DNA of 64,000 bases, from contig CAWBNQ010000003.1 of NCBI GenBank assembly GCA_963790205.1, forward strand, positions 896,001 to 960,000, read 5' to 3'. Below are positions 22,024 through 62,131 of the stretch, one piece after another (position 1 is the first letter of the stretch; the number at the start of each line of letters is the position of its first letter). The notes below the pieces were generated by a model, which did not search any database, was not told the DNA's origin, and saw only the letters and a list, made by a program, of their open reading frames with translations. This DNA is from Nitrospirota bacterium (lineage in GTDB: Bacteria; Nitrospirota; UBA9217). The position numbers were made by a program, and so were the translations under genes.

Positions 22024-22788
22024 TTATCCGAATCGACCGGTTATGTAATCGTCGGTCTGTTTTTTGTCGGGATTCGTGAAGATCTTCTCCGTGGTCCCGT
22101 ATTCGATGAGTTCTCCCAGGTAGAGAAAGCCCGTCATGTCCGACACGCGCGCCGCCTGCTGCATGTTGTGCGTCACGATGATGATGGTAATGTCCTTCTT
22201 CAGGCCCGCGACAAGCTCCTCGATCTTCGCCGTTGAAATGGGGTCGAGCGCGGAGGTGGGCTCGTCGAAGAGCAGCACCTCGGGGTCAACGGCCAGGGCG
22301 CGGGCGATGACGAGCCGCTGCTGCTGTCCGCCGGAGAGATCATAGGCGCTGGCGTTCAGCTTGTCCCTGACCTCCTCCCAGAGCGCCGCGTGCTTCAGCG
22401 CCTGTTCGATGCGGCCTACCAGCTCGGATTTGTTCCTGATGCCCTTCAGCCGGAGGCCATAGGCAATGTTTTCGGCGATGGACATGGGGAAGGGCGTCGG
22501 CTTCTGGAACACCATGCCGATGCGGCTCCTGAGATTGATAAGGTCAATGTCGCTTGCCAGGATGTTCTTGTCCTGAAAGAGTATTTCTCCTCCATACCGG
22601 TGGTTGGGGTACAGATCGTGCATCCGGTTGAAGCAGCGGAGCAGCGTGGTCTTGCCGCAGCCCGAGGGGCCGATGAGCGCCGTGACGTTATTCTTGCCGA
22701 TCGGCAGAGATATCCCCCTGAGGGCATGGATGTTCCCGTTATAGTAAAAGTCCAGGCCCTTGACCTCGATCTCGATAGTTCCCGTCAA
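22024..22788 (-). CDS. pstB: Phosphate ABC transporter ATP-binding protein
   Basis: [44 protein letters not shown]. Confidence 0.97.
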
Positions 22789-23627
22789 CGCTTATACCTC
22801 CACCGGATGATGAGTCTCCCTGCGATCGTGAGCGCGAGTATGAACAGGGTGATCACGAACGATGCTCCCCACGCCTGTGAATGCCAGTTTTTGTAAGGGC
22901 CCATGGCATACTGAAAAATCGTGACCGTCAGCGACGCCATGGGACCGTTCATGTTTCCCGAGAAAAAATTGTTGTTGAACGACGTAAAAAGGAGCGGCGC
23001 GGTCTCGCCCGCAACGCGGGCGATCGAAAGCAGAATGCCGGTCAGGATGCCCGCGGCCGCGCCGCGGTACACGACCTGGATGATCACCTTATAGTACGGC
23101 GCGCCGAGCGCAAAGGCCGCTTCGCGCAGGGTCCAGGGCACGAGGGACAGCATGTTCTCCGTGGTCCGGAGCACCACGGGTATCATGATGATCGCGAGGG
23201 CGACCGCGCCCGACCAGCCGCTGAAATGATGGAGGGGCCGGACGAGGACCGCGTAAATAAAGGCGCCTATCACGATCGAGGGAACGCTGACCATGATGTC
23301 GGAAAGAACGCTGATGACCCGGCTGATCTTTGTCCCCCGCGCGTATTCGGCCAGGAACGTCCCCCCGAGCACGCCGACGGGAACCCCGATCAAGGTGGCG
23401 GCGCCGGTGATCATCAACTGGCCGACAAAGGCGTTTTTGAGCCCTCCGCCCTCGACGCCGGCGGGAGCGGGATCGTTGAAGAACAGATCCAGGTTGAGCG
23501 CTCCGATGCCGTGGATGAGGACGTCTGACAGGATGTAGACGAGCCAGAAGAGGCCGACCGCCGCGGCAAGACCGGAAAGGCTCAATGCGATGACGCTTTC
23601 TATTTTACGTTTCTGTTCGTAGGTCAT
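22785..23627 (-). CDS. pstA: Phosphate ABC transporter permease PstA
   Basis: [30 protein letters not shown]; start could be 23627 or 23648. Confidence 0.95.
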
Positions 23628-23644
23628 GATCGCAAACAAATTTA

Positions 23645-23812
23645 CCACAGAGGCACACCCTGCACTCGCGGTTCCATTCGTAAACGCTGGGCGCAGGCTG
23701 AGGCGCCGAGAAAATAATAAGCTCTTATGCTGAGAAACGTATGATACAAATATTCAGGTTCTTCCTTGATACTAAACTTGTTGCTTTGGAGTTACTCTCT
23801 GCGTCTCCGTGG
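23645..23812. repeat. Intergenic 9-mer-type inverted repeat element, apparently interrupted by a short insert
   Basis: ccacagaggcac...gaggcgccgaga ... ctctctgcgtctccgtgg. Confidence 0.45.
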
Positions 23813-23820
23813 CTGACGTG

Positions 23821-24762
23821 TCATCTTGAATATTTTCTCTCGGCCTTGAGAAGAAAGAACTTCGCCATCGCCAAAATGATGAAGCTCATCACGAACAGCA
23901 CGAGCGCCAGATAATAGAGAGAGGAAAGATAGAGCGCGCTGTCCGCTTCCGTGAATTCATTGGCAAGGCTGACCGTAATGGTGGAGGCCGCGTCAAAAAG
24001 CGACGTGGCGATCTTGTGGTTGTTCCCGAGCACGAAGGCCACCGCCATGGTCTCACCCAGCGCCCGCCCCAGGGACAGGGCCGCGCCGCCGAACACGCCG
24101 AGCTTTGAGTAGGGGAGGACGACGTTCTTGACCACTTCCCACTTTGTTGCGCCGACGGCGTAGGCCGACTCCTTGACCACGGCGGGGGTGAGATTAAACG
24201 CGTCGCGCGCGATGCTCGCCGTGAACGGAATAACCATAATGGCGAGAATGACGCTTGCCGTCAGCAGGTCGATGCCCATGGGAGTGCCCTTAAACAGGAT
24301 GCCGACGAGGGGCAGTTTCCCGATGGTGCCCTGGAGCGCAGGTTCGATGTACTGCGACATGATGGGCGCCAGGGTGAATAGTCCCCACATGCCGTAAATG
24401 ATGCTCGGGATAGCGGCCAAAAGCTCGATAGCGACCCCGATGGGGCCTTTGAGGAAATTCGGCGCGATCTCGGTGACGAACACGGCTATGCCTATGGCAA
24501 TGGGTATGGCGAAGACCAGGGCAAGTGCGGTTGTGACAAAGGTGCCGTAAATCGTGGTCGCCGCCCCGAAGATGCCCGTCACGGGGTTCCAGGCCGTGGA
24601 GGTCAGAAACCGTACAAGCCCGAACTTCCCTATCGCGAGTGAAGACTCCTTCAAAAGCACTGCTATGATGCCGATGATAAAAATGACGACGGTAAAGGAC
24701 GCGACCGCGGTAAGGGAGGAAAAAAGCAGCTCAGGGATGTTTTTCCTGAAAGATATGGCCAA
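23821..24762 (-). CDS. pstC: Phosphate ABC transporter permease PstC
   Basis: ELLAAIPSIIYGMWG, ESAYAVGATKWE, LGRALGETMAV. Confidence 0.95.
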   Translation of the reverse strand: MAISFRKNIPELLFSSLTAVASFTVVIFIIGIIAVLLKESSLAIGKFGLVRFLTSTAWNPVTGIFGAATTIYGTFVTTALALVFAIPIAIGIAVFVTEIAPNFLKGPIGVAIELLAAIPSIIYGMWGLFTLAPIMSQYIEPALQGTIGKLPLVGILFKGTPMGIDLLTASVILAIMVIPFTASIARDAFNLTPAVVKESAYAVGATKWEVVKNVVLPYSKLGVFGGAALSLGRALGETMAVAFVLGNNHKIATSLFDAASTITVSLANEFTEADSALYLSSLYYLALVLFVMSFIILAMAKFFLLKAERKYSR

Positions 24763-24872
24763 AGCACGGACCTTTCTGCTCTAAAGAAGGATGAAGAGAA
24801 ATGCAACGGGTCAGATATGAGCAGTATATATACCTGACCCGTTGATTTCAACTGTTTTTTTACGCCGCTGTG

Positions 24873-25883
24873 TTAATACTTGATGCCGTGCGACTTCCAG
24901 TAAGCGCGGATTTTGTCTTTCAGCGATTTCGGGAGAGGAACATAGATGAGCTCCTCCGCCTTTTTGTCGCCGTTGGTAAACGCCCAGTTGTAGAACTTGG
25001 TCACCTTCATGTTCGAGTCCTGCTTTTCCTTGCCGAGCAGGATGAACGTGGCGCCGGCGATGGGCCAGGCCTTCTTGCCCGGAGCATTATTCAGCCAGAG
25101 GTAGAAGTCCTTTTTCGGGTCGAAGCTCGCCGTTGCAGCCGCGTCCTCGAAGGTCTTGAAGCTCGGCGCCACGAACGCGCCCGCATGGTTCTTGAGGAGC
25201 GTGTAGGTCAGGTTGTTCTGCTGCGCATAGGCGAACTCCACGTAGCCGATGGAGTTTTTCTGCTGCTGCACATAGTTGGCAACGCCCTCGTTCCCTTTGC
25301 CTCCTATTCCCGCGGGCCAGCTCACGGAGGTGCCGGTGCCGACCTTCTCTTTCCAGGCAGGGCAGACATCGTTCAGGTAGCCGGTGAAGATGGCGGTCGT
25401 CCCGGACCCGTCGGAGCGATGGACCACCGTGATGTCGCTGTCCGGGAGGTTGACTTTGGGGTTCAGCCCCTTGATCTTCGGGTCGCTCCACTTTGTGATC
25501 TCACCCAGGTACATTTTGCAGACCGCTTCGGAATCGAGTCTCAGCTCTCCCGCTTTTATACCGGGAATATTGACGACCAGAACGACGCCGCCCATCACCG
25601 CCGGGAACTGGAGCAGATTGTTTTTTGCCAGGAACTCGGGCGTTTGGGGCGCGTCGGATGCGCCGAAGTCGACCGTCCGCTCCGTGATCTGCTTGATGCC
25701 GCCGCCTGAACCGATGGACTGGTAGTTCAGCTTCACGCCGGTGATCTTGTTGTACTCGTTGGCCCACGCGGAATAAACGGGATACGGGAACGTGGCGCCT
25801 GCGCCGTTCAACATCTCCTCCGCGAGAGCTGTTGTTGCCAGGGCCAGTACGGCGATTAATGCTAGTGCTGCGATTTTTTTCAT
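24873..25883 (-). CDS. pstS: Phosphate ABC transporter substrate-binding protein
   Basis: Signal peptide, GAGATFPYP, YQSIGSGGG, DFGASD, HRSDGSGTT, GKGNEGV. Confidence 0.97.
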   Translation of the reverse strand: MKKIAALALIAVLALATTALAEEMLNGAGATFPYPVYSAWANEYNKITGVKLNYQSIGSGGGIKQITERTVDFGASDAPQTPEFLAKNNLLQFPAVMGGVVLVVNIPGIKAGELRLDSEAVCKMYLGEITKWSDPKIKGLNPKVNLPDSDITVVHRSDGSGTTAIFTGYLNDVCPAWKEKVGTGTSVSWPAGIGGKGNEGVANYVQQQKNSIGYVEFAYAQQNNLTYTLLKNHAGAFVAPSFKTFEDAAATASFDPKKDFYLWLNNAPGKKAWPIAGATFILLGKEKQDSNMKVTKFYNWAFTNGDKKAEELIYVPLPKSLKDKIRAYWKSHGIKY

Positions 25884-50617: not shown

Positions 50618-50893
50618 TCATATTTTCGGAACTTTCGTGTACGTCCTGCAGTCAGGATATCCCGAGCACCTGAAACGCAAAATCGTCCCTTCATCCTTGT
50701 ATAGATGCATGATGCTGCCGCAGGCCGGGCATAACGGCCTCTTCTCGACTTTCGTGCGACGGCCCTCGGTAAACTGCTTCCCGCATAGCAAGCAGAGATA
50801 GCGTTGCTTACCTGTCCGTGCAAACCCGTCGCGATATACGTTACTCGACTCACACGCCGGGCACTGTACGTTATTGATCGTGTCTTTAGGCAT
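50618..50893 (-). CDS. Double zinc-ribbon protein (IS1 InsA-like ribbon plus topoisomerase-like C4 ribbon)
   Basis: CPACES..YRDG...GKQRYLCLLCGKQF, then CPACG.IM...FRCSGYPDC. Confidence 0.8.
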   Translation of the reverse strand: MPKDTINNVQCPACESSNVYRDGFARTGKQRYLCLLCGKQFTEGRRTKVEKRPLCPACGSIMHLYKDEGTILRFRCSGYPDCRTYTKVPKI

Positions 50894-51501: not shown

Positions 51502-51810
51502 ATGGCACTTTTGGACAATGGATTGAAAGGAAATCTTGCTACCGGTCTGGCGATCGGCATCGGTGCCGCAATACTGGCACCCGTAGTCATTCCTCTGTTT
51601 GCCAATATCGCGAAGCCGTTGGCAAAAGCCGCAATCAAAGGAGGCATGCAGCTGTATGAACGCGGAAAGGAAACATTTGCAGAGGTCGCTGAAATTACGG
51701 AAGATATTGTGGCTGAAGCAAAAGCGGAATTAGCTGAGTCGACAGCGGCAGCGGCGGCAGTTGCGGCAGCACCGGCTGCAGACTCCGAAGGCGGGTCAGT
51801 CACGTCATGA
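51502..51810 (+). CDS. DUF5132-like / FezA-like small membrane protein
   Basis: GLAIGIG GxxxG helix, KPLAKAAIKGG, acidic helix EITEDIVAEAKAE. Confidence 0.78.
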   Translation: MALLDNGLKGNLATGLAIGIGAAILAPVVIPLFANIAKPLAKAAIKGGMQLYERGKETFAEVAEITEDIVAEAKAELAESTAAAAAVAAAPAADSEGGSVTS

Positions 51811-52292
51811 TCCCGCCCGCTGTCATTGCCCATGCTTCAGCCGGGAGATTACGGATCCGGATCTCCTCACAAAAAGGGAACCTTGCAGCACTTAAGTCCG
51901 GGGGAGATCAGCTTGCCGCGTGTCCGGGGATTCTCTCCATTGAGGTGAACCCGGGTACGGGGAGCATACTTGTACTTCACCAAACGACGGTGCAAGTGAT
52001 TGCGGAGTATGCGCGGTCCAGGAGCCTTTTTTCGTTGGAGGACCAAAGGATATCAAGGGTGCCGTCTGCGGAGCTTCGCCGGGACCTTGGCGGTACGTTC
52101 AAGAGCATTGATCGGCAGATACAGAACCTCACGGGTGGAGATTTGGACCTAGGCGGGTTTGCAGTCGGAGCCTTGGTTATAGCGGGTAGTTTGCAAATCT
52201 TGTCAGGGACTGCAGGCCCAATACCGTGGTCAGCAGCGTACTGGTACGCATACAATCTCTACTCAAAAACAAAGGATGGGGAGAAAAAATGA
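51807..52292 (+). CDS. HMA2-domain (FezC-like) membrane protein
   Basis: HASAGRLRIRI, GILSIEVNPGTGSILV, then TGGDLDL, TM helix, PWSAAYWYA. Confidence 0.78.
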   Translation: MIPPAVIAHASAGRLRIRISSQKGNLAALKSGGDQLAACPGILSIEVNPGTGSILVLHQTTVQVIAEYARSRSLFSLEDQRISRVPSAELRRDLGGTFKSIDRQIQNLTGGDLDLGGFAVGALVIAGSLQILSGTAGPIPWSAAYWYAYNLYSKTKDGEKK

Positions 52293-52582
52293 CATAAGCA
52301 GCACCGAGGGAAGTAGGAACCCTTCCAGTCCGTGTCCGCCTTGTCAGCAACAAAAGTTTCTCGTTATAGAAAAAATCTGAATTTCTGAAAAACCCGTTTC
52401 CAGCATTATCACAACAAAAAAGTACGATAACGCTTTTGGGAACCTTGACAGGAGTAATGCTTATGAGCGACCGCAAACAAAAGGCACCGACGAAGAAGAC
52501 CGTGAAGCGCAGCTCGCGCGACTCGTCGTCGGAATCGGATCTGAAAATCACAACTACGAGGACTACAAAAGGAGGAGCAGAC

Positions 52583-53191
52583 ATGACAAACGCAGAAACC
52601 ATAGGTGGGGAAACGTCAGCCCAAGACATCGGCAAAGCAGGATCTGCCGTGAAAGAGGGCGTCGTGAGCAGTCTCAAAGGGATCAACGAGATCGAAGCGG
52701 AGATCGTCAGCCTCGTCAGGAACACCGTATCCAACACGCTTCGCGCAACAGGCTCAGTGGCCGATGAAGCAGTCGGCATCACGAAGGATGTGGTCAAGGG
52801 AGCCATTCAGGCCACGGAAGAGGTCGGCACCGGCCTCATTTTGAGCACCAAGAGCGTGGCAAAAGGGGTGGTCATGGGCGTGAGCGATGTTGGCGGCGAC
52901 ATTATTTCCGTGGCAGGCCAGACCGTCAAGGGCGCAGTCAAGGGTGCGGCCGAGGTCGGCGCGGATGTCGCCATGGTTGCCCGGCGGGCCGTGGACGGCG
53001 TGATCGAGGCCACCAAGGAAGTCGGGGGGAATGCCGAAGAGGTGGCGAAAGTCGCCGTCACTGGCGCAATTGAGGCGGCATCTGTAATCGGCAACACGGC
53101 GGTCAAGGCGGTCAAGGACATGCTGGTTGGAGTTGTTGAAGGAGTCAAAGAGGTCGCGAGCAGCGCGTTGCCGAAGACGAAAACGACTTAA
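52583..53191 (+). CDS. 22-residue amphipathic repeat protein
   Basis: AAAGGAGGAG RBS before ATG 52583; at least 7 tandem 22-mers such as GDIISVAGQTVKGAVKGAAEVG. Confidence 0.82.
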   Translation: MTNAETIGGETSAQDIGKAGSAVKEGVVSSLKGINEIEAEIVSLVRNTVSNTLRATGSVADEAVGITKDVVKGAIQATEEVGTGLILSTKSVAKGVVMGVSDVGGDIISVAGQTVKGAVKGAAEVGADVAMVARRAVDGVIEATKEVGGNAEEVAKVAVTGAIEAASVIGNTAVKAVKDMLVGVVEGVKEVASSALPKTKTT

Positions 53192-53246: not shown

Positions 53247-56200
53247 GTGGTCCAGGCCGTTCATACGTCGGTAAAAGGACGGGCCCGTTATAAGGTAGAG
53301 GGTCTGTACCGCTCGGAGCAGTTGAAACAGCAGATCGAGCAGAATCTTGCGCAGCACAAGTGGATCCTGAGCGTTTCGATCAATACCCTCACGGGAAGCG
53401 TTCTCGTGCTGTTCGATTCGCAGAACGGCAACCATGCATCGGCTGTAGCCTCCCTGCTGAATGCCGCGGTGGAACGTACCAACGGCGGGCCGGTCCAAGG
53501 AAAGGGAGACCCTTTCCCTTCTGTGTCGCAGGGGGAAGGAACGGTTATGGTACGCACCGTGCGCACCGTCGCCTCTCCTCTCCCCACTCCCGCTGGCAAG
53601 GAAGTGCCGAGCCTCCGGACCGTTCGCAAGCAAGTTTCCCGTGCCGATGACCAGCAGGGAGAAGCATGGCATTGCATGTCAAAGGGAGATGTGCTTCAGA
53701 GATGGGGTACGTCAGCGTCCAACGGTTTATCCGAAGAAGCAGCCCGCCTCTTGTTCATTCAGTATGGTCCCAACCTTCTGCCTGAGTCCGTTCCCCGCTC
53801 CGGCTGGAGCATGTTCTTCGATCAGTTCAAGTCCCTTCCCGTAGCCCTCCTCGGCGTTGCGGCCGGCATTTCCGTTGCTACCGGCGGATTTGCGGATGCC
53901 GTCGTGATCATGGGGGTCGTCGTCACCAACGCCTCAATAGGATATTATACCGAGAGCCAGTCGGAAAAGATCATCCACGGATTGAAGAGCCTCGTGCAGC
54001 CGACCTCAACCGTGATCCGCGACGGGGTCATGACGACCATCGATGCCAAGGTGGTCGTGCCCGGAGATCTAATCGTGCTGAGACCGGGAAGCTATGTCGC
54101 GGCGGACGCCCGTCTCATCGAGGCAAAATATCTGAGCATCGATGAATCGGCGCTCACCGGCGAGAGCATGCCGGCGATGAAAACCACCGATGAACTGCAG
54201 GTACCGGACATCCTCCTTGCCGACCGCACTAACATGGTCTATATGGGCACCCTGGTCACCGGGGGACAGGGCCTCGCCGTCGCGGTGGCGACAGGACGCT
54301 TTACCGAGGTCGGAAAGATCCAGACCATGGTGGGAGAGGCGCGGCCGCCCGAGACGCCCCTGGAACGGCAGATGGACCACCTGGGGGTCCAGTTGGTTTA
54401 TATCACCTGCGCCGTATGCGGCATCGTGTTCATCGTAGGCATCCTCCGCGGTTATGGTTTTCTCCAGATGCTGAAGACCTCCATTGCCCTTGCCGTAGCC
54501 GCCGTGCCCGAGGGGCTTCCGACCGTTACGACGACGACCCTCGCGCTCGGCATCAAGCGCATGCGCGGTCTGAACGTGCTCATCCGCCACCTTGACGCGG
54601 TCGAAACGCTCGGGTCGGTCGAAACCATCTGTCTTGACAAGACCGGCACGATCACTATGAACAAGATGTCGGTGGTCCAGATGCATGCCGGCATGCGCCG
54701 TCTCGATGTTGTCGATGGCAGGATCTTGGCGGAAGGAAAAAATATAAACCCCTATACGAGCGAGGACGTCCTCCGTCTGCTCCATTTGTCCGTGCTCTGT
54801 AATGAATCGATGGTATCGGGACAGGAAGGCGACTACGTTGTGGAAGGGTCATCAACGGAAAACGCCCTGGTGAACCTCGCGCTCACCGCCGGCGTGGATG
54901 TCAATTCGCTTCGCGCGCAGCACCCCATCGTGAAGATGAACCACCGATCGGAAGACCGGCATTATATGAACACCGTACACCGCTCGAACGACCAACAGCG
55001 GCTAATGGCTCTCAAGGGGAGTCCTTCCGATGTGCTGTCACTCTGCAAATGGTACGTCAACGACGGCCGGCAACTGGAGCTTGACGACGATGCCCGCGCG
55101 GTCTTCTACGCAGAAAATGAACGGATGGCCGGTGAAGCGCTCCGCGTGCTGGCCATGGCGTACGCCGTGACCAACGGGGACACCCTGCACAGCGACGGGA
55201 TCATTCAGCAGGGACTCGTCTGGGTCGGCCTCGTCGGCATGGCGGATGTGGTCAGGAGCGGCGTCAAGAATCTCATCAACACGTTCCACCGGGCCGGGAT
55301 CGATACCGTTATGATCACCGGTGACCAGAGCCCCACTGCCTATGCGATCGGCAAGGAGCTCAATCTGAGCAAGGGCGAGGAACTGGAGATCCTGGACTCC
55401 GCCAACCTTAGCCGGCTTGAGCCCGAGGTCATGAAGGCGCTTGCCGGGCGTGTCCATGTCTTCGCCCGCGTGAGCCCGGCCAACAAGCTCCAGATCGTCC
55501 AGGCGCTCCAGTCCGCAGGAAAGGTCATCGGTATGACCGGCGACGGCATCAACGATGGACCGGCGCTCAAAGCTGCCGATATCGGGATCGCCCTGGGACA
55601 CACGGGGACCGACGTGGCGCGGGAGGTAGCGGACGTGGTCCTGGAAGACGACAACCTCGAGACCATGATCGTGGCCATCAGTCAGGGGCGGACGATCTAC
55701 AATAATTTACGAAAATCGGTCCGCTACATGCTTTCGAAGAACACGAGCGAGATCATGATCATGTTCACGGCTCTTGCCGCCGGCATGGGGCAGCCGTTCA
55801 ACGTCATGCAGCTTCTCTGGATCAACATGATCTCGGACATCTTCCCGGGCCTTGCCCTTGCCCAGGAACCGCCCGAGCCGGATGTGCTCCTGCGGCCTCC
55901 CCGCGACCCCGAGGAACCGCTCATCAAGACCGCGGACTTTAAAAGGCTCCTCTTCGAGGCTTCCACTATCTCGGCGGGGACGCTGGCGGCGTACGGCTAC
56001 GGCGTTCTGCGCTACGGGCAGGGGCCCCAGGCCAGCACCATGGCTTTCACGAACTTTGTTACAGCAGGACTCCTGCATGCCATCAGCCATCGTTCCGAGA
56101 CCCACAGCATCTTTGACGCTGACCGGCTCGCACCGAACAACTATCTCACCGTGGCTCTGGCAGGCTCGTTGGGGTTGCAATCTCTTACCCTGGTCGTCCC

Positions 56201-56393
56201 GGGCCTCCGGAGCTTCCTGGGAATGAGCCCGCTGAACCCCTTCGACCTGGCAGTTTCGATCGGGACCGCTGTCGCTCCTTTGCTCATCAACGAGGCGACA
56301 AAAAAGATTGCTGCTCCGCCGTTGGTGCTGAATGGCAGTTCATCGGCCCCGATTTCGATATTGAACGGTAATCACGTTGCTGCAGTCACTTGA
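53247..56393 (+). CDS. P2A-type cation-transporting ATPase with an N-terminal HMA2-like domain
   Basis: VHTSVKGRARYKV..NTLTGSVLV N-domain; TGES, VPEGL, DKTGT, KGSP, TGD, GDGINDGPALK, SKNTSE, WINMISD. Confidence 0.9.
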   Translation: MVQAVHTSVKGRARYKVEGLYRSEQLKQQIEQNLAQHKWILSVSINTLTGSVLVLFDSQNGNHASAVASLLNAAVERTNGGPVQGKGDPFPSVSQGEGTVMVRTVRTVASPLPTPAGKEVPSLRTVRKQVSRADDQQGEAWHCMSKGDVLQRWGTSASNGLSEEAARLLFIQYGPNLLPESVPRSGWSMFFDQFKSLPVALLGVAAGISVATGGFADAVVIMGVVVTNASIGYYTESQSEKIIHGLKSLVQPTSTVIRDGVMTTIDAKVVVPGDLIVLRPGSYVAADARLIEAKYLSIDESALTGESMPAMKTTDELQVPDILLADRTNMVYMGTLVTGGQGLAVAVATGRFTEVGKIQTMVGEARPPETPLERQMDHLGVQLVYITCAVCGIVFIVGILRGYGFLQMLKTSIALAVAAVPEGLPTVTTTTLALGIKRMRGLNVLIRHLDAVETLGSVETICLDKTGTITMNKMSVVQMHAGMRRLDVVDGRILAEGKNINPYTSEDVLRLLHLSVLCNESMVSGQEGDYVVEGSSTENALVNLALTAGVDVNSLRAQHPIVKMNHRSEDRHYMNTVHRSNDQQRLMALKGSPSDVLSLCKWYVNDGRQLELDDDARAVFYAENERMAGEALRVLAMAYAVTNGDTLHSDGIIQQGLVWVGLVGMADVVRSGVKNLINTFHRAGIDTVMITGDQSPTAYAIGKELNLSKGEELEILDSANLSRLEPEVMKALAGRVHVFARVSPANKLQIVQALQSAGKVIGMTGDGINDGPALKAADIGIALGHTGTDVAREVADVVLEDDNLETMIVAISQGRTIYNNLRKSVRYMLSKNTSEIMIMFTALAAGMGQPFNVMQLLWINMISDIFPGLALAQEPPEPDVLLRPPRDPEEPLIKTADFKRLLFEASTISAGTLAAYGYGVLRYGQGPQASTMAFTNFVTAGLLHAISHRSETHSIFDADRLAPNNYLTVALAGSLGLQSLTLVVPGLRSFLGMSPLNPFDLAVSIGTAVAPLLINEATKKIAAPPLVLNGSSSAPISILNGNHVAAVT

Positions 56394-56420: not shown

Positions 56421-57620
56421 ATGAAAAAAGACTTCATGTTCACCTCGGAATCGGTGACCGAAGGCCATCCTGACAAGCTCTGCGATATCATCAGCGATGC
56501 CATCGTCGATCATGTCCTGCAGAAGGACCCGTATGCGAATATCATAGCCGAGTGCGCCGTTTCCACTGCCATTGTCTTCATCGCAGCGCGGTTCGCGACC
56601 TCGGCCAGGGTCGATTATGCCAATGTCGCCCGGCAGGTCATCAGCCAGGTCGACTATGAGGAGCGGGCCTTTAATGCAAAGACCTGCAGCGTCATAACCA
56701 GCCTCACCGAGGTACCGTTGGACGGCCGTCCGCTGGTTGATGAACGGACCCTGAGCGAGGAGGAGATCGAACGCATTCCCGTGCGGAACCTGGTGACGGT
56801 GTTCGGGTTCGCCTGCGATCAGACCGCGGCCTTTATGCCGCTTCCCGTCTGGCTCGCCCACCGTCTTGCAAGGAAACTCGTGGCCGTGCGGCTCCAGAAA
56901 ACGCTCGATTATCTTGCGCCCGACGGCAAGACCCAGGTCGGCATAGAATATTGTGACGGCAGACCGTCGCGTGTTCACAGCATCACCATTATTGCAAGCC
57001 AGAAGCGGACCGCAGCCAAAGGCGGGCCCGATGCCCAACGGCTCCAGGCCGATATCCGGGAGACAGTGCTGAACCCTGTTTTTCAGGACGAGGAGATCAA
57101 ACCGGATGCGCACACCCGGATCTTCGTCAATCCCGACGGACCTTTCATCGGCGGCGGTCCTGCCGTACACTCAGGGTTGACCGGGAGAAAGAACGCAATC
57201 GATACTTACGGCGAATACTCCCGCCATAGCGGGGCAGCCCTGAGCGGGAAAGATCCTTCGAGGATAGACCGGATCGGCGCCTATGCTGCCCGGTATGCTG
57301 CAAAGAATATCATCGCAGCCGGACTTGCAACCTCCTGCGAGGTGCAGCTCAGCTATTCCATTGGATTTTCGCGGCCGGTGAGCATCCAGATAGAGACCTT
57401 CGGGACCGGCAAAGTATCTGATGAAAGAATTGCCGATATCATAGAAAATAATTTCGACTTTCGGCCGGCCGGTATCATACGCCATTTCAACCTTCGATGT
57501 CTCCCTTCTCAGATCAAAGGCGGTTTTTATCGCAAACTAGCGGCGTACGGTCATGTCGGAAGAATGGACATCGGCTTGCCCTGGGAATTGACAGACAAGG
57601 CGCATCTCCTGAAAGGGTGA
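56421..57620 (+). CDS. metK: Divergent methionine adenosyltransferase (MetK) paralogue
   Basis: ESVTEGHPDK, DGKTQV, GLTGRK, SGKDPS.IDR, AAYGH; GAGDQG motif absent, so the function may differ. Confidence 0.8.
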   Translation: MKKDFMFTSESVTEGHPDKLCDIISDAIVDHVLQKDPYANIIAECAVSTAIVFIAARFATSARVDYANVARQVISQVDYEERAFNAKTCSVITSLTEVPLDGRPLVDERTLSEEEIERIPVRNLVTVFGFACDQTAAFMPLPVWLAHRLARKLVAVRLQKTLDYLAPDGKTQVGIEYCDGRPSRVHSITIIASQKRTAAKGGPDAQRLQADIRETVLNPVFQDEEIKPDAHTRIFVNPDGPFIGGGPAVHSGLTGRKNAIDTYGEYSRHSGAALSGKDPSRIDRIGAYAARYAAKNIIAAGLATSCEVQLSYSIGFSRPVSIQIETFGTGKVSDERIADIIENNFDFRPAGIIRHFNLRCLPSQIKGGFYRKLAAYGHVGRMDIGLPWELTDKAHLLKG

Positions 57621-57647: not shown

Positions 57648-58556
57648 ATGCATGAGACAGAGGAAAAGCACGTAAAAGGCCAGACGCTCGTTCTTGTTGT
57701 AACAATAGCCTATTTTTTCGTTGAATTGATCGGGGGGTTCTATTATCACAGCATCGCCCTCGTGACTGATGCGTCGTTCATGGCCGTCAATATCTCGGGG
57801 CAGGTCATCGCACTATGGGTGACCAGGCTTGCCCGCAGACAGCCGGACAAGGTCAATACCTTCGGGTACGAGCGCGCGAAAGTGCTGTCTGGCCTGTTCA
57901 ACGGGGTCCTGGTCGGCTTCATCCTGTTCTATGTTTTCACGGAAGCTTTCCAGAAGATTCTGCACCCTCAGCCCATTGAAGCGGATAAGGTTCTGGTGAT
58001 AGCCGTCCTGGGCCTCGCTGCGAACGCCTTCGGTCTCGTACAACTGTACCGGTACGCAAAGGACGTGAACATCAGAGGGGCGCTGCTCCTGCTCCTGAAT
58101 GATACCCTGGGTTCGGTCGGTGTCATTGGTTCTGCCATCATCATACGTTATACCCATCTTTATTTTGTGGACCCGCTTGCCGGCATCCTGATCGGCTGCC
58201 TTGCCGCGTATCCGACTTATTTTTTGATCAGGGACAGCATAAAGATCCTGATGGAGGGGACTCCTGCCAGAATCGATGTCGATGACGTCGCAGGATTTCT
58301 GCATCAATCGTTCCCCCAAATACATCTTGTCAAGGATATGCATATCTGGGGTCTTTCACCGGAGAAGGTTATCCTCGTGGCAAGAATCAGGACGAATGGA
58401 GCGGGATATGACCGGGATACCATAAAACTGATGAAGAACATGCTGCGGGAAAAATTCGGCTTATTTGACATTTACCTAGAGGGATACGAAACGCGGCAAC
58501 ACGAAGCAGCAACGGTGGCGCACGATGTGCTCACACCGAACTATCAAAAGGACTGA
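57648..58556 (+). CDS. Cation diffusion facilitator (CzcD/ZitB-like) with an atypical metal site
   Basis: TFGYERA, EAFQKI.HP, NIRGA, DPL, ILMEGTP, DMHIW. Confidence 0.85.
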   Translation: MHETEEKHVKGQTLVLVVTIAYFFVELIGGFYYHSIALVTDASFMAVNISGQVIALWVTRLARRQPDKVNTFGYERAKVLSGLFNGVLVGFILFYVFTEAFQKILHPQPIEADKVLVIAVLGLAANAFGLVQLYRYAKDVNIRGALLLLLNDTLGSVGVIGSAIIIRYTHLYFVDPLAGILIGCLAAYPTYFLIRDSIKILMEGTPARIDVDDVAGFLHQSFPQIHLVKDMHIWGLSPEKVILVARIRTNGAGYDRDTIKLMKNMLREKFGLFDIYLEGYETRQHEAATVAHDVLTPNYQKD

Positions 58557-58612: not shown

Positions 58613-58873
58613 ATGAACAAACGCACTCTGCAGGACATTGAGACGGGACCACGTCATCACGAGGTCGCGGTCGAAAACCTTGCGCAAAGCCTGAACCGGC
58701 CAAAAGAGCGTATAACGACCCTTTACCAGATAGTGTTGAGACACTATTCACGGACGGCACGGATCAAATTCTTTCTCTCTGCCCTCGTTTCGAAGCGGGT
58801 CAAAGACCTGCTGCGGGATAATACAACGACGGCTGATATAGAAAGCCGGAGGGGCCATTCGCGGGAGTTGTGA
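58613..58873 (+). CDS. Small helical protein (DUF3562-like)
   Basis: GGGGGAG RBS; ARIKFFLSALVSKRVKDLL motif. Confidence 0.6.
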   Translation: MNKRTLQDIETGPRHHEVAVENLAQSLNRPKERITTLYQIVLRHYSRTARIKFFLSALVSKRVKDLLRDNTTTADIESRRGHSREL

Positions 58874-59455: not shown

Positions 59456-59827
59456 TTAAAGCAATAACGTCAGAAATGACAAGCCCGTACCTGAAAGGGC
59501 AGTGTCAATGAAAGCTCCTGATACCGCTTTGGCTACCACGTTGAATGCCGTAGTCGTCGCCTGATGAATCACTTGATCGTTGGTGACTGTTTTGTCGGGA
59601 TGATAAAAACCTCCCCTCGCAAGGGCGCTCAGGATGTCCTGATGATGAATCTCTGCCGGGTTGTAATGGATCAGAAGGCTGCCCGTCGTCGTGTTGAATT
59701 CGGCGGTTCCGATACCATGACCCATATCAACGAGGGCCTTTCGAACCTCATAGTGGACCGGGCTGTTTTTGAACAAGGGATTTTTTATCCGCAGTCTTCC
59801 CGGCACATTATGAACATAGCTTTTCAT
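59456..59827 (-). CDS. HMA2-domain (FezC-like) protein with a hydrophobic C-terminus
   Basis: YVHNVPGRLRIK, NTTTGSLLIHY; AGGAGG RBS. Confidence 0.82.
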   Translation of the reverse strand: MKSYVHNVPGRLRIKNPLFKNSPVHYEVRKALVDMGHGIGTAEFNTTTGSLLIHYNPAEIHHQDILSALARGGFYHPDKTVTNDQVIHQATTTAFNVVAKAVSGAFIDTALSGTGLSFLTLLL

Positions 59828-60116
59828 GAGATGAAACCTCCTTCTTGAACGGGATTTTTACATACGATTTACAGTCAGGATATTCCGAGCACCTGAATCG
59901 TAACCCTATTTTTTCATGCATGTAAAGGTGCATCTTGAGGCCGCAGATGGGACAGGTTGGACGATTCCTCAATTCATGCCTCGTAAAGCCGAGAACAAAC
60001 TGTCTTCCGCACAAAACGCATCTGAGGCGCTGCTTTCCAGTTTTCACATGACCGTATTTATAAACTGCTTCAGAAGCGCACACCGGACACTTGAGATTGC
60101 GTATTTTCTCCGTCAT
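59808..60116 (-). CDS. Double zinc-ribbon protein, paralogue of 50618..50893
   Basis: CPVCAS..YKYG..TGKQRLRCVLCGRQF, then CPICG.KM...FRCSEYPDC. Confidence 0.8.
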   Translation of the reverse strand: MTEKIRNLKCPVCASEAVYKYGHVKTGKQRLRCVLCGRQFVLGFTRHELRNRPTCPICGLKMHLYMHEKIGLRFRCSEYPDCKSYVKIPFKKEVSSHEKLCS

Positions 60117-60143
60117 TATCAAGTTCCTCAATTCTTTCTCAGA

Positions 60144-60197
60144 ATGATAGAGGAGCCACATGACATATATGTTACGGAAATATTACATTTCGGTTAA
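60144..60197 (-). promoter_or_regulatory. Pho-box-like array plus -10 box (zinc ribbon-HMA2 unit)
   Basis: ATGAC 60160, GTTAC 60171, ATTAC 60182, GTTAA 60193; -10 TATCAT at 60149-60144. Confidence 0.75.
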
Positions 60198-61608: not shown

Positions 61609-61713
61609 CTATTTCCAGTGTATTACCATGAAAAGAAGCCCCGCCATCAAAACCACGAGCAGGAGTATCTCTTCGCTTTTTTTTAAGTTGTTCTTATTCA
61701 TGCTGTTATCCAT
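61609..61713 (-). CDS. Putative 34-aa single-pass membrane protein
   Basis: MDNSMNKNNLKKSEEILLLVVLMAGLLFMVIHWK; GAGG RBS; overlaps the psiE stop and fills the gap to the GH1 gene. Confidence 0.5.
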   Translation of the reverse strand: MDNSMNKNNLKKSEEILLLVVLMAGLLFMVIHWK

Positions 61714-62131
61714 GTTTTGCCTCTTCCGTCTCTAAGAATTTTTCCGGTGAAAATACGACCGCGAGCGTCCTGAGCACTCCGATCACGAGAATCAGCGTTG
61801 CAAGCGCGATGATCATTTTCGCCTCCAGGCTGTGCTGGTAGAGCCCGATCATGATCTCGCGGAGTACAAAGACCAAGGCGGCATCGGTAATGAACGTTAT
61901 TTTAAGCCGGTGCACGGTAAAGTACTCTATGACGCTCCGAAGCAGTTCTATGACGATGAACATCGAAAGGATGTTGGTCACCATCATGTCGAAGGCCGCC
62001 GCGATGGTCTGGCTCCCGAAAACAGCGCGCAGGTCAAGCAGGACCCGCGCGATCCCCATCATCAGGGCGATGATCACGATCGGGATCATGAACTTGATCA
62101 TGCTGTCGACGATCCGGGTAAAGTATTTCAT
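61706..62131 (-). CDS. psiE: Phosphate-starvation-inducible PsiE-family membrane protein
   Basis: 4 TMs; FIVIELLRSVIEYF, ITDAALVFVLREIM. Confidence 0.85.
   Translation of the reverse strand: MKYFTRIVDSMIKFMIPIVIIALMMGIARVLLDLRAVFGSQTIAAAFDMMVTNILSMFIVIELLRSVIEYFTVHRLKITFITDAALVFVLREIMIGLYQHSLEAKMIIALATLILVIGVLRTLAVVFSPEKFLETEEAKHG

Follow-up and report, generated by a model that had tools for sequence, protein, structure and literature searches.

Gene content of the locus

The window, that is, the whole stretch of 64,000 nucleotides of Nitrospirota DNA that was analysed, harbours a same-strand run of genes in which a P2A-type cation ATPase is directly followed by an intact open reading frame for a MetK-like protein. 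The features that matter for the analysis are the following (positions in the window):

51502..51810, + strand: DUF5132 protein, which opens the same-strand run
51807..52292, + strand: HMA_2 (CoBaHMA) protein
52436..53191, + strand: Ala/Val/Gly-rich protein with no Pfam match and an uncertain start, which precedes the pump in most loci outside the cyanobacteria
53247..56393, + strand: P2A-type cation ATPase of 1048 aa with an N-terminal HMA_2 (CoBaHMA) domain, ending 27 bp before the MetK-like start
54945..54947, + strand: codon of pump Arg567, which replaces the Phe of the N-domain ATP cleft
56421..57620, + strand: MetK-fold paralogue of 399 aa, with metal and triphosphate ligands kept and basic residues in place of the methionine pocket
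56589..56591, + strand: codon of Arg57 (E. coli E55 position)
57168..57170, + strand: codon of His250 (E. coli D238 position)
57261..57263, + strand: codon of Arg281 (E. coli K269 position)
57648..58556, + strand: CDF cation-efflux transporter, in a variable part of the locus (CorA or MgtE nearby in other loci)
58613..58873, + strand: small DUF3562 protein, a frequent neighbour
59456..59827, - strand: second free-standing HMA_2 protein, behind the zinc-ribbon gene
59808-60161, - strand: zinc-ribbon gene
61706-62131, - strand: PsiE-family gene

Across related loci, the recurring neighbours are DUF5132, HMA_2, the Ala/Val-rich protein, DUF3562, a zinc-ribbon protein and CDF, CorA or MgtE. The Ala/Val/Gly-rich protein is 52% to 90% identical among non-cyanobacterial loci and was not seen in cyanobacterial ones, and an atlas search with it returned only unnamed or phasin-labelled clusters at a low recognition score. 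Two paralogous double zinc-ribbon genes (50618-50893 and 59808-60161, - strand; 53% identical) flank the operon, and many loci couple a zinc-ribbon gene to a free HMA_2 gene. Scans for promoters and terminators gave results near chance.

Two known types of gene cluster resemble this arrangement. In Microcystis, DUF5132 and CoBaHMA/HMA_2 proteins lie beside the calcyanin gene ccyA much as they do here (bioRxiv 2024.07.07.602159), and the fez clusters of ferrosomes have a similar layout in which a P-type ATPase is accompanied by HMA-like, R-rich and GxxxG small proteins (bioRxiv 2020.01.10.902569). The ferrosome ATPase FezB is a P1B-6 ATPase, whereas the window pump is of the P2A type, which sets the locus apart from ferrosome clusters. 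The parts of these two descriptions available to us name no MetK-like gene in either the ccyA or the fez clusters (bioRxiv 2024.07.07.602159, bioRxiv 2020.01.10.902569), and keyword searches of the literature found no description of the MetK-like family, though subscription papers (including work on CoBaHMA) and supplements may mention the pump.

Residue pattern of the MetK-like protein and its clade

The MetK-like protein shares with E. coli MetK (PDB 1RG9/1P7L; TIGR01034; PF00438/PF02772/PF02773) the fold, the length, the GHPDK motif and the ligands of Mg2+, K+ and triphosphate. At 42% identity to the E. coli enzyme, it matches all three MAT Pfam domains and scores 370.7 bits on the metK model TIGR01034, above the curated cut-off of 309.4 bits, with the canonical MetK of the same genome at 605.3 bits. 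The MAT fold was recovered by Foldseek with a TM-score of about 0.78 to E. coli MAT, starting from an AlphaFold single-chain model (pLDDT 76, below 50 at residues 251-275) that served for the fold search only, its quality around the active site being insufficient for any judgement of the pocket geometry.

We aligned the protein by MAFFT with the RefSeq record of E. coli MetK, the canonical MetK of its own genome and 197 homologues, which combine 120 proteins and 77 of 80 loci (three partial loci were excluded, and the two sets overlap). The ligands of Mg2+, K+ and triphosphate are all present and near-invariant in the close clade (E. coli residue first: H14=H16, D16=D18, E42=E44, K165=K170, R244=R256, K245=K257, K265=K277, D271=D283), and D163 is retained as D168. 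The methionine ligands are absent, with R57, V98, H250 and R281 in place of E55, Q98, D238 and K269 and PVRNLV in place of the GAGDQG motif, and R229 has become P241. A sequence-only reading of this DNA had listed all of these residues as retained or changed, and the alignment bears it out in each case and adds the exchange of D118 for N123. The trio R55/H238/R269 is common to 192/197 homologues; the remaining five are canonical cyanobacterial MetK proteins.

These changes differ in what they can tell about function. According to the structural literature, E55 and D238 bind the amino group of methionine and Q98 and K269 its carboxylate, while F230 stacks on the adenine and R229 contributes no more than a carbonyl (PMC3853416, PMC1282579); the human equivalent of Q98 is nearly dispensable, with 75% activity left (PMC6850014). 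The sequence-only reading had spoken of acid-to-base swaps, which is true of E55 and D238 and does not apply to K269>R, a conservative exchange of one basic residue for another. The loss of R229 is real but uninformative, as only its backbone carbonyl makes contact with the adenine (PMC3853416) and just 30/72 canonical enzymes have R at this position. Similarly, GAGDQG is indeed replaced, but L at the position of Q119 is near-private to the window gene (Q in 191/197). With K269>R conservative, R229 variable even among canonical enzymes and Q98 of little consequence in its human counterpart, the informative changes are E55R, D238H, the loss of S99 and I102 and the replaced gating loop.

The claim that the protein keeps its ATP site has to be split as well, since it holds for the triphosphate half whereas the adenosine side is changed at S99, I102, D118 and D238. 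Among the adenosine contacts, D163 and F230 are present, S99, I102 and D238 are lost, and the gating loop is replaced. The close clade keeps F230 in 186/197 sequences, D163 in 197/197 and K165 in 194/197, and its new gating loop contains a near-invariant acidic pair, D107/E108, that is absent from several deep members.

A profile run against 1.84 billion cluster representatives retrieved the deeper members, at 39% to 54% identity, from which 16 deep variants were chosen by tree and partly by eye on their pocket residues, one of them a fragment without the N-terminus. The triphosphate and metal ligands are conserved in this set (H14, D16 and K17 in 15/16, E42 in 15/16, R244 and K245 in 16/16, K265 and D271 in 15/16), as are H238 (15/16), R269 (15/16) and an R or H at position 55 (13/16). 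On the adenosine side, F is found at position 230 in 2/16 deep variants vs 68/72 canonical enzymes and K at position 165 in 6/16 vs 72/72, while S99 and I102 are lost and E8 drifts as well.

The expectation that the substitutions define a clade was upheld by a quick IQ-TREE phylogeny, in which 25 variant rows fall on one side of a branch with an SH-aLRT of 99 (pocket columns included). Beyond its residues, the variant thus differs from MetK as a separate tree group, and also in being fixed behind a P2A pump and usually a second copy. Its members are spread over Nitrospirota, Thermodesulfobacteriota, Myxococcota, Cyanobacteriota and Pseudomonadota, so that the substitutions are not private to this genome. 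The variant clade is under purifying selection, with a dN/dS of 0.07 to 0.14 in seven pairs that include the window gene and of 0.04 to 0.10 in four cyanobacterial pairs (11/11 low). The window gene is 70% to 72% identical to cyanobacterial variants, compared with 57% to 58% between the canonical enzymes. A collection of 159 plasmid records contained no MetK-like member above 60% identity.

The P2A pump and its linkage to the variant

The pump resembles the P2A Ca2+ pumps LMCA1 (Listeria), SPCA1 and SERCA in its phosphorylation site, its TGES and PEGL motifs and the Asn, Glu and Asp residues of TM5 and TM6, and SPCA1 and LMCA1 are its best PDB matches. DKTGT, TGES, PEGL and the TM5/TM6 cation ligands N832/E835 and N860/D864 are invariant (64/64). 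The protein reaches 617 bits on TIGR01522 and at most 227 bits on P1B models, at a level below the equivalog cut-offs of both TIGR01522 and TIGR01116. Unlike LMCA1, SPCA1 and SERCA, it has an N-terminal HMA_2 domain, an Arg for the Phe of the ATP cleft, TGDQ for TGDH/Y and no acidic residue in TM8. Other invariants specific to the clade are A588, W659 and Q694 (of TGDQ).

At the ATP cleft, the pump reads HRSEDRH, in contrast to the PF[DE]SxRK shared by LMCA1 and by three P2A paralogues encoded in the same genome. R567 is found in 86/86 clade pumps (83 with and 3 without the variant) and in 119/119 database homologues (the sets overlap), whereas outgroup P2A pumps have F at this position in 6/6 cases and K five residues on; in the clade, this Lys is replaced at residue 572 by N, H, Q, P or S. 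The other cleft residues E538, K590, R633 and L635 are kept (64/64), so that only the Phe is replaced, in a mapping onto SERCA numbers that runs through an alignment with LMCA1 and that we presume to hold. The cleft of SERCA consists of E442, F487, R489, K515, R560 and L562 (PMC7313052). Arg567 could still stack on adenine and is no proof of lost ATP use. As a separate observation, residue 831 in TM5 is Lys in 9/64 pumps, including the window pump, and Thr in 55/64, and the Lys goes with Gly for Gln at 941. It resembles the TM5 lysine of H,K-ATPases and may mark a pump subgroup with other ion coupling.

The proposed tie of the MetK-like clade to HMA_2-bearing P2A ATPases proved to be very close. 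We collected 80 genome loci, 75 with variants (72 of them with upstream DNA) and five with canonical metK, and found the clade pump directly upstream of 72/72 variants, at a median distance of 28 bp (range -3 to 287 bp), and of 0/5 canonical genes. An independent metagenome scan of 80 MetK loci (8 variants, 71 canonical, 1 partial) gave the same picture, with the pump upstream of 7/7 variants with upstream DNA vs 0/71 canonical genes, one of which has an unrelated P-type ATPase downstream. Among 141 genomes of cyanobacteria, 12 have the pump and 10 have the variant, which always lies beside it; isolates with the pair include Fischerella sp. PCC 9431, Hydrococcus rivularis NIES-593 and Cylindrospermum sp. 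NIES-4074. In the Nitrospirota sample, 24/25 listed clade pumps accompany a variant (in one pair, the two genes are separated by contig ends), and an additional variant follows a frameshifted pump. Three loci (L118 on G036:C3, L110 in G066, and L044) combine a split or frameshifted pump gene with an intact MetK-like gene, by assembly error or real loss.

A variant without the pump was not seen wherever upstream DNA exists. Three genomes (G085, G157 and G252) have an Arg-type pump with canonical metK only, which makes the variant an accessory that the pump does not need. An obligate coupling between Arg567 of the pump and the variant was considered and rejected on the strength of these same three pumps. 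A search for pump positions that would mark linkage to the variant gave 14 differences, mostly conservative, against a contrast set of only three sequences, which is too few to be informative. Complex prediction for the MetK-like dimer and residues 473-673 of the pump, its N-domain, gave a score of 0.00, which is no answer and counts neither for nor against binding. In a soil metatranscriptome sharing 6% of words, we found contigs from relatives (mostly less than 95% alike), one of them across the pump-MetK junction, though contigs of this kind cannot show transcription.

Phosphate genes are frequent around the variant, with pst or phoBR within about 8 kb in 21/46 non-cyanobacterial and 4/29 cyanobacterial variant loci vs 0/76 canonical loci and 0/8 of the (short) metagenome variant loci, a count biased by queries drawn from variant loci and by relatives that are not independent. 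In the window genome, pstSCAB lies about 26 kb upstream of the MetK-like gene (window positions ~22027-25823, - strand) and phoBR about 14 kb downstream of it (G000:C3:971379-973803), and together with the PsiE-family gene they form a possible phosphate-starvation island. A Pho-box scan with a consensus sequence gave 18 matches vs 12.9 +/- 4.1 expected by chance, none of them just upstream of the operon.

Candidate functions of the MetK-like protein

The MetK-like protein is very probably not a SAM synthetase. It passes the metK HMM and fails at the methionine ligands, and should therefore not be filed under that function; the annotation of the variant as metK, at scores above the curated cut-off, would then be a systematic misannotation. 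SAM synthesis is, to our knowledge, the only reaction ascribed to the MAT fold, and an old sister family in several phyla without the methionine pocket would represent a second function for this fold.

We tentatively favour a putative Mg/K-dependent tri- or polyphosphate hydrolase accessory to the P2A cation pump, a reading of the residue pattern to which we give a little less than an even chance. R57, H250 and R281 would repel the amino group of methionine and hold extra phosphate groups beside the triphosphate site. Of the two MAT steps, the enzyme would carry out the second alone (PPPi -> PPi + Pi), possibly with longer chains as substrates, and would in this way trim, supply or clear polymers of inorganic phosphate for a pump module that handles divalent cations and often lies beside phosphate-uptake genes. 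We take human MAT1 D258 and K289 to be the equivalents of D238 and K269. MAT enzymes make SAM and PPPi and then hydrolyse PPPi, and mutations on the methionine or adenosine side can abolish the first step and spare the second, as in human MAT1 D258G and K289N and MAT2 S114A, where SAM formation is lowered or abolished and phosphatase activity is unchanged (PMC6850014). The PPPi-hydrolase reading fits both these mutants and the retained residues, and it appears best supported because the residues of the second step are kept while the amino-binding acids are now basic and the adenine contacts are drifting. The sequence-only reading had suggested an anionic co-substrate or an ATP/PPPi hydrolase that would supply phosphate. 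As regards ATP, the drift seen in deep members speaks against its being the conserved substrate, although it may still bind in the close clade, where F230, D163 and K165 are kept. The acidic pair D107/E108 counts against a hydrolase, as it could bind an amino group.

The replaced residue in the ATP cleft of the partner pump raises the question of whether a P-type pump can use inorganic polyphosphate. Judged from Arg567 in place of the adenine-stacking Phe, it is conceivable but doubtful that the pump is powered by an adenine-free phosphoryl donor such as polyphosphate, PPPi or PPi, which the MetK look-alike would trim or supply. If this were true, the two proteins would serve, under phosphate stress, to fill a phosphate-rich compartment with divalent cations.

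Among the alternatives to a hydrolase, a sensor with slow catalysis or none is unlikely, yet fares better than the others. Its ligand at the dimer interface would be ATP, PPi, polyP or some other phosphorylated signal, and it would act directly on the pump as a regulator. The variant never being seen without the pump where upstream DNA exists and the pump occurring without the variant are what one would expect of an accessory subunit, and the conservation of the binding residues together with the drift of K165 and E8 in deep members would suit a sensor as well. Against it stands the near-invariance of the catalytic His14 and all metal ligands, which extends to the deep members and would be expected rather of an active enzyme. 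Rather unlikely, too, is an adenosyltransferase with a new nucleophile, which would convert ATP and an anionic S or O acceptor (e.g., a deaminated methionine analogue or a thio-acid) into an adenosyl product and PPPi. The cationic new pocket and the presence of H14, D163, K165 and F230 in the close clade are consistent with such a reaction, but the deep members do not conserve F230, K165, S99 and I102, and what recurs beside the gene is transporters and small proteins, with no recurring enzyme gene that could use such a product.

It is improbable that the variant makes SAM as a second synthetase whose methionine pocket has been rearranged. The archaeal-type MAT (PF01941; Thermococcus kodakarensis MAT) is a precedent for other residues binding the carboxylate (PMC3853416), and the score above the TIGR01034 cut-off and the acidic D107/E108 loop of the close clade would fit a synthetase. 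However, the archaeal-type enzyme belongs to another sequence family and keeps its amino-binding Asp, whereas both amino-binding acids are basic here; the equivalent of S99, which human MAT2 needs for SAM synthesis (PMC6850014), is lost, several deep members lack the acidic loop, and a SAM synthetase would have no evident reason for a fixed place behind one pump.

The inventory of MAT genes in variant-bearing genomes also speaks mostly against this role. A canonical metK with all methionine ligands, whose presence elsewhere in the genome had been suggested as a check, was found on contig C8 of the window genome, and the variant occurs in 24/151 Nitrospirota genomes (25 genes), 21/24 of which have a second MetK match (20 listed at 44% to 48% identity, one not listed). 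The three Nitrospirota carriers without a second match belong to one genus (g10), in which canonical metK is missing from 3/3 genomes and an archaeal-type MAT lies 4 to 5 kb from the variant in 2/3 (see also loci L003, L004 and L005). In G107 (89% complete) we found neither canonical nor archaeal-type MAT, and in G153 the variant is the sole bacterial-type MetK found by a search that covered the bacterial type; these two gaps leave a small chance that the variant is a SAM synthetase after all. A decaying metK duplicate, dispensable for SAM beside the canonical copy, is refuted by substitutions shared over several phyla, by the low dN/dS and by an identity to cyanobacterial variants above that among canonical enzymes, and has next to no chance of being true.

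The window genome also encodes an archaeal-type MAT (L087; G000:C14:131733-132917), which scores above the NF003363 cut-off, so that this one bacterial genome has three MAT-type genes, canonical, variant and archaeal-type. Some other genomes carry two separate pairs of pump and variant, namely G128 (L027, L025), G154 and G155.
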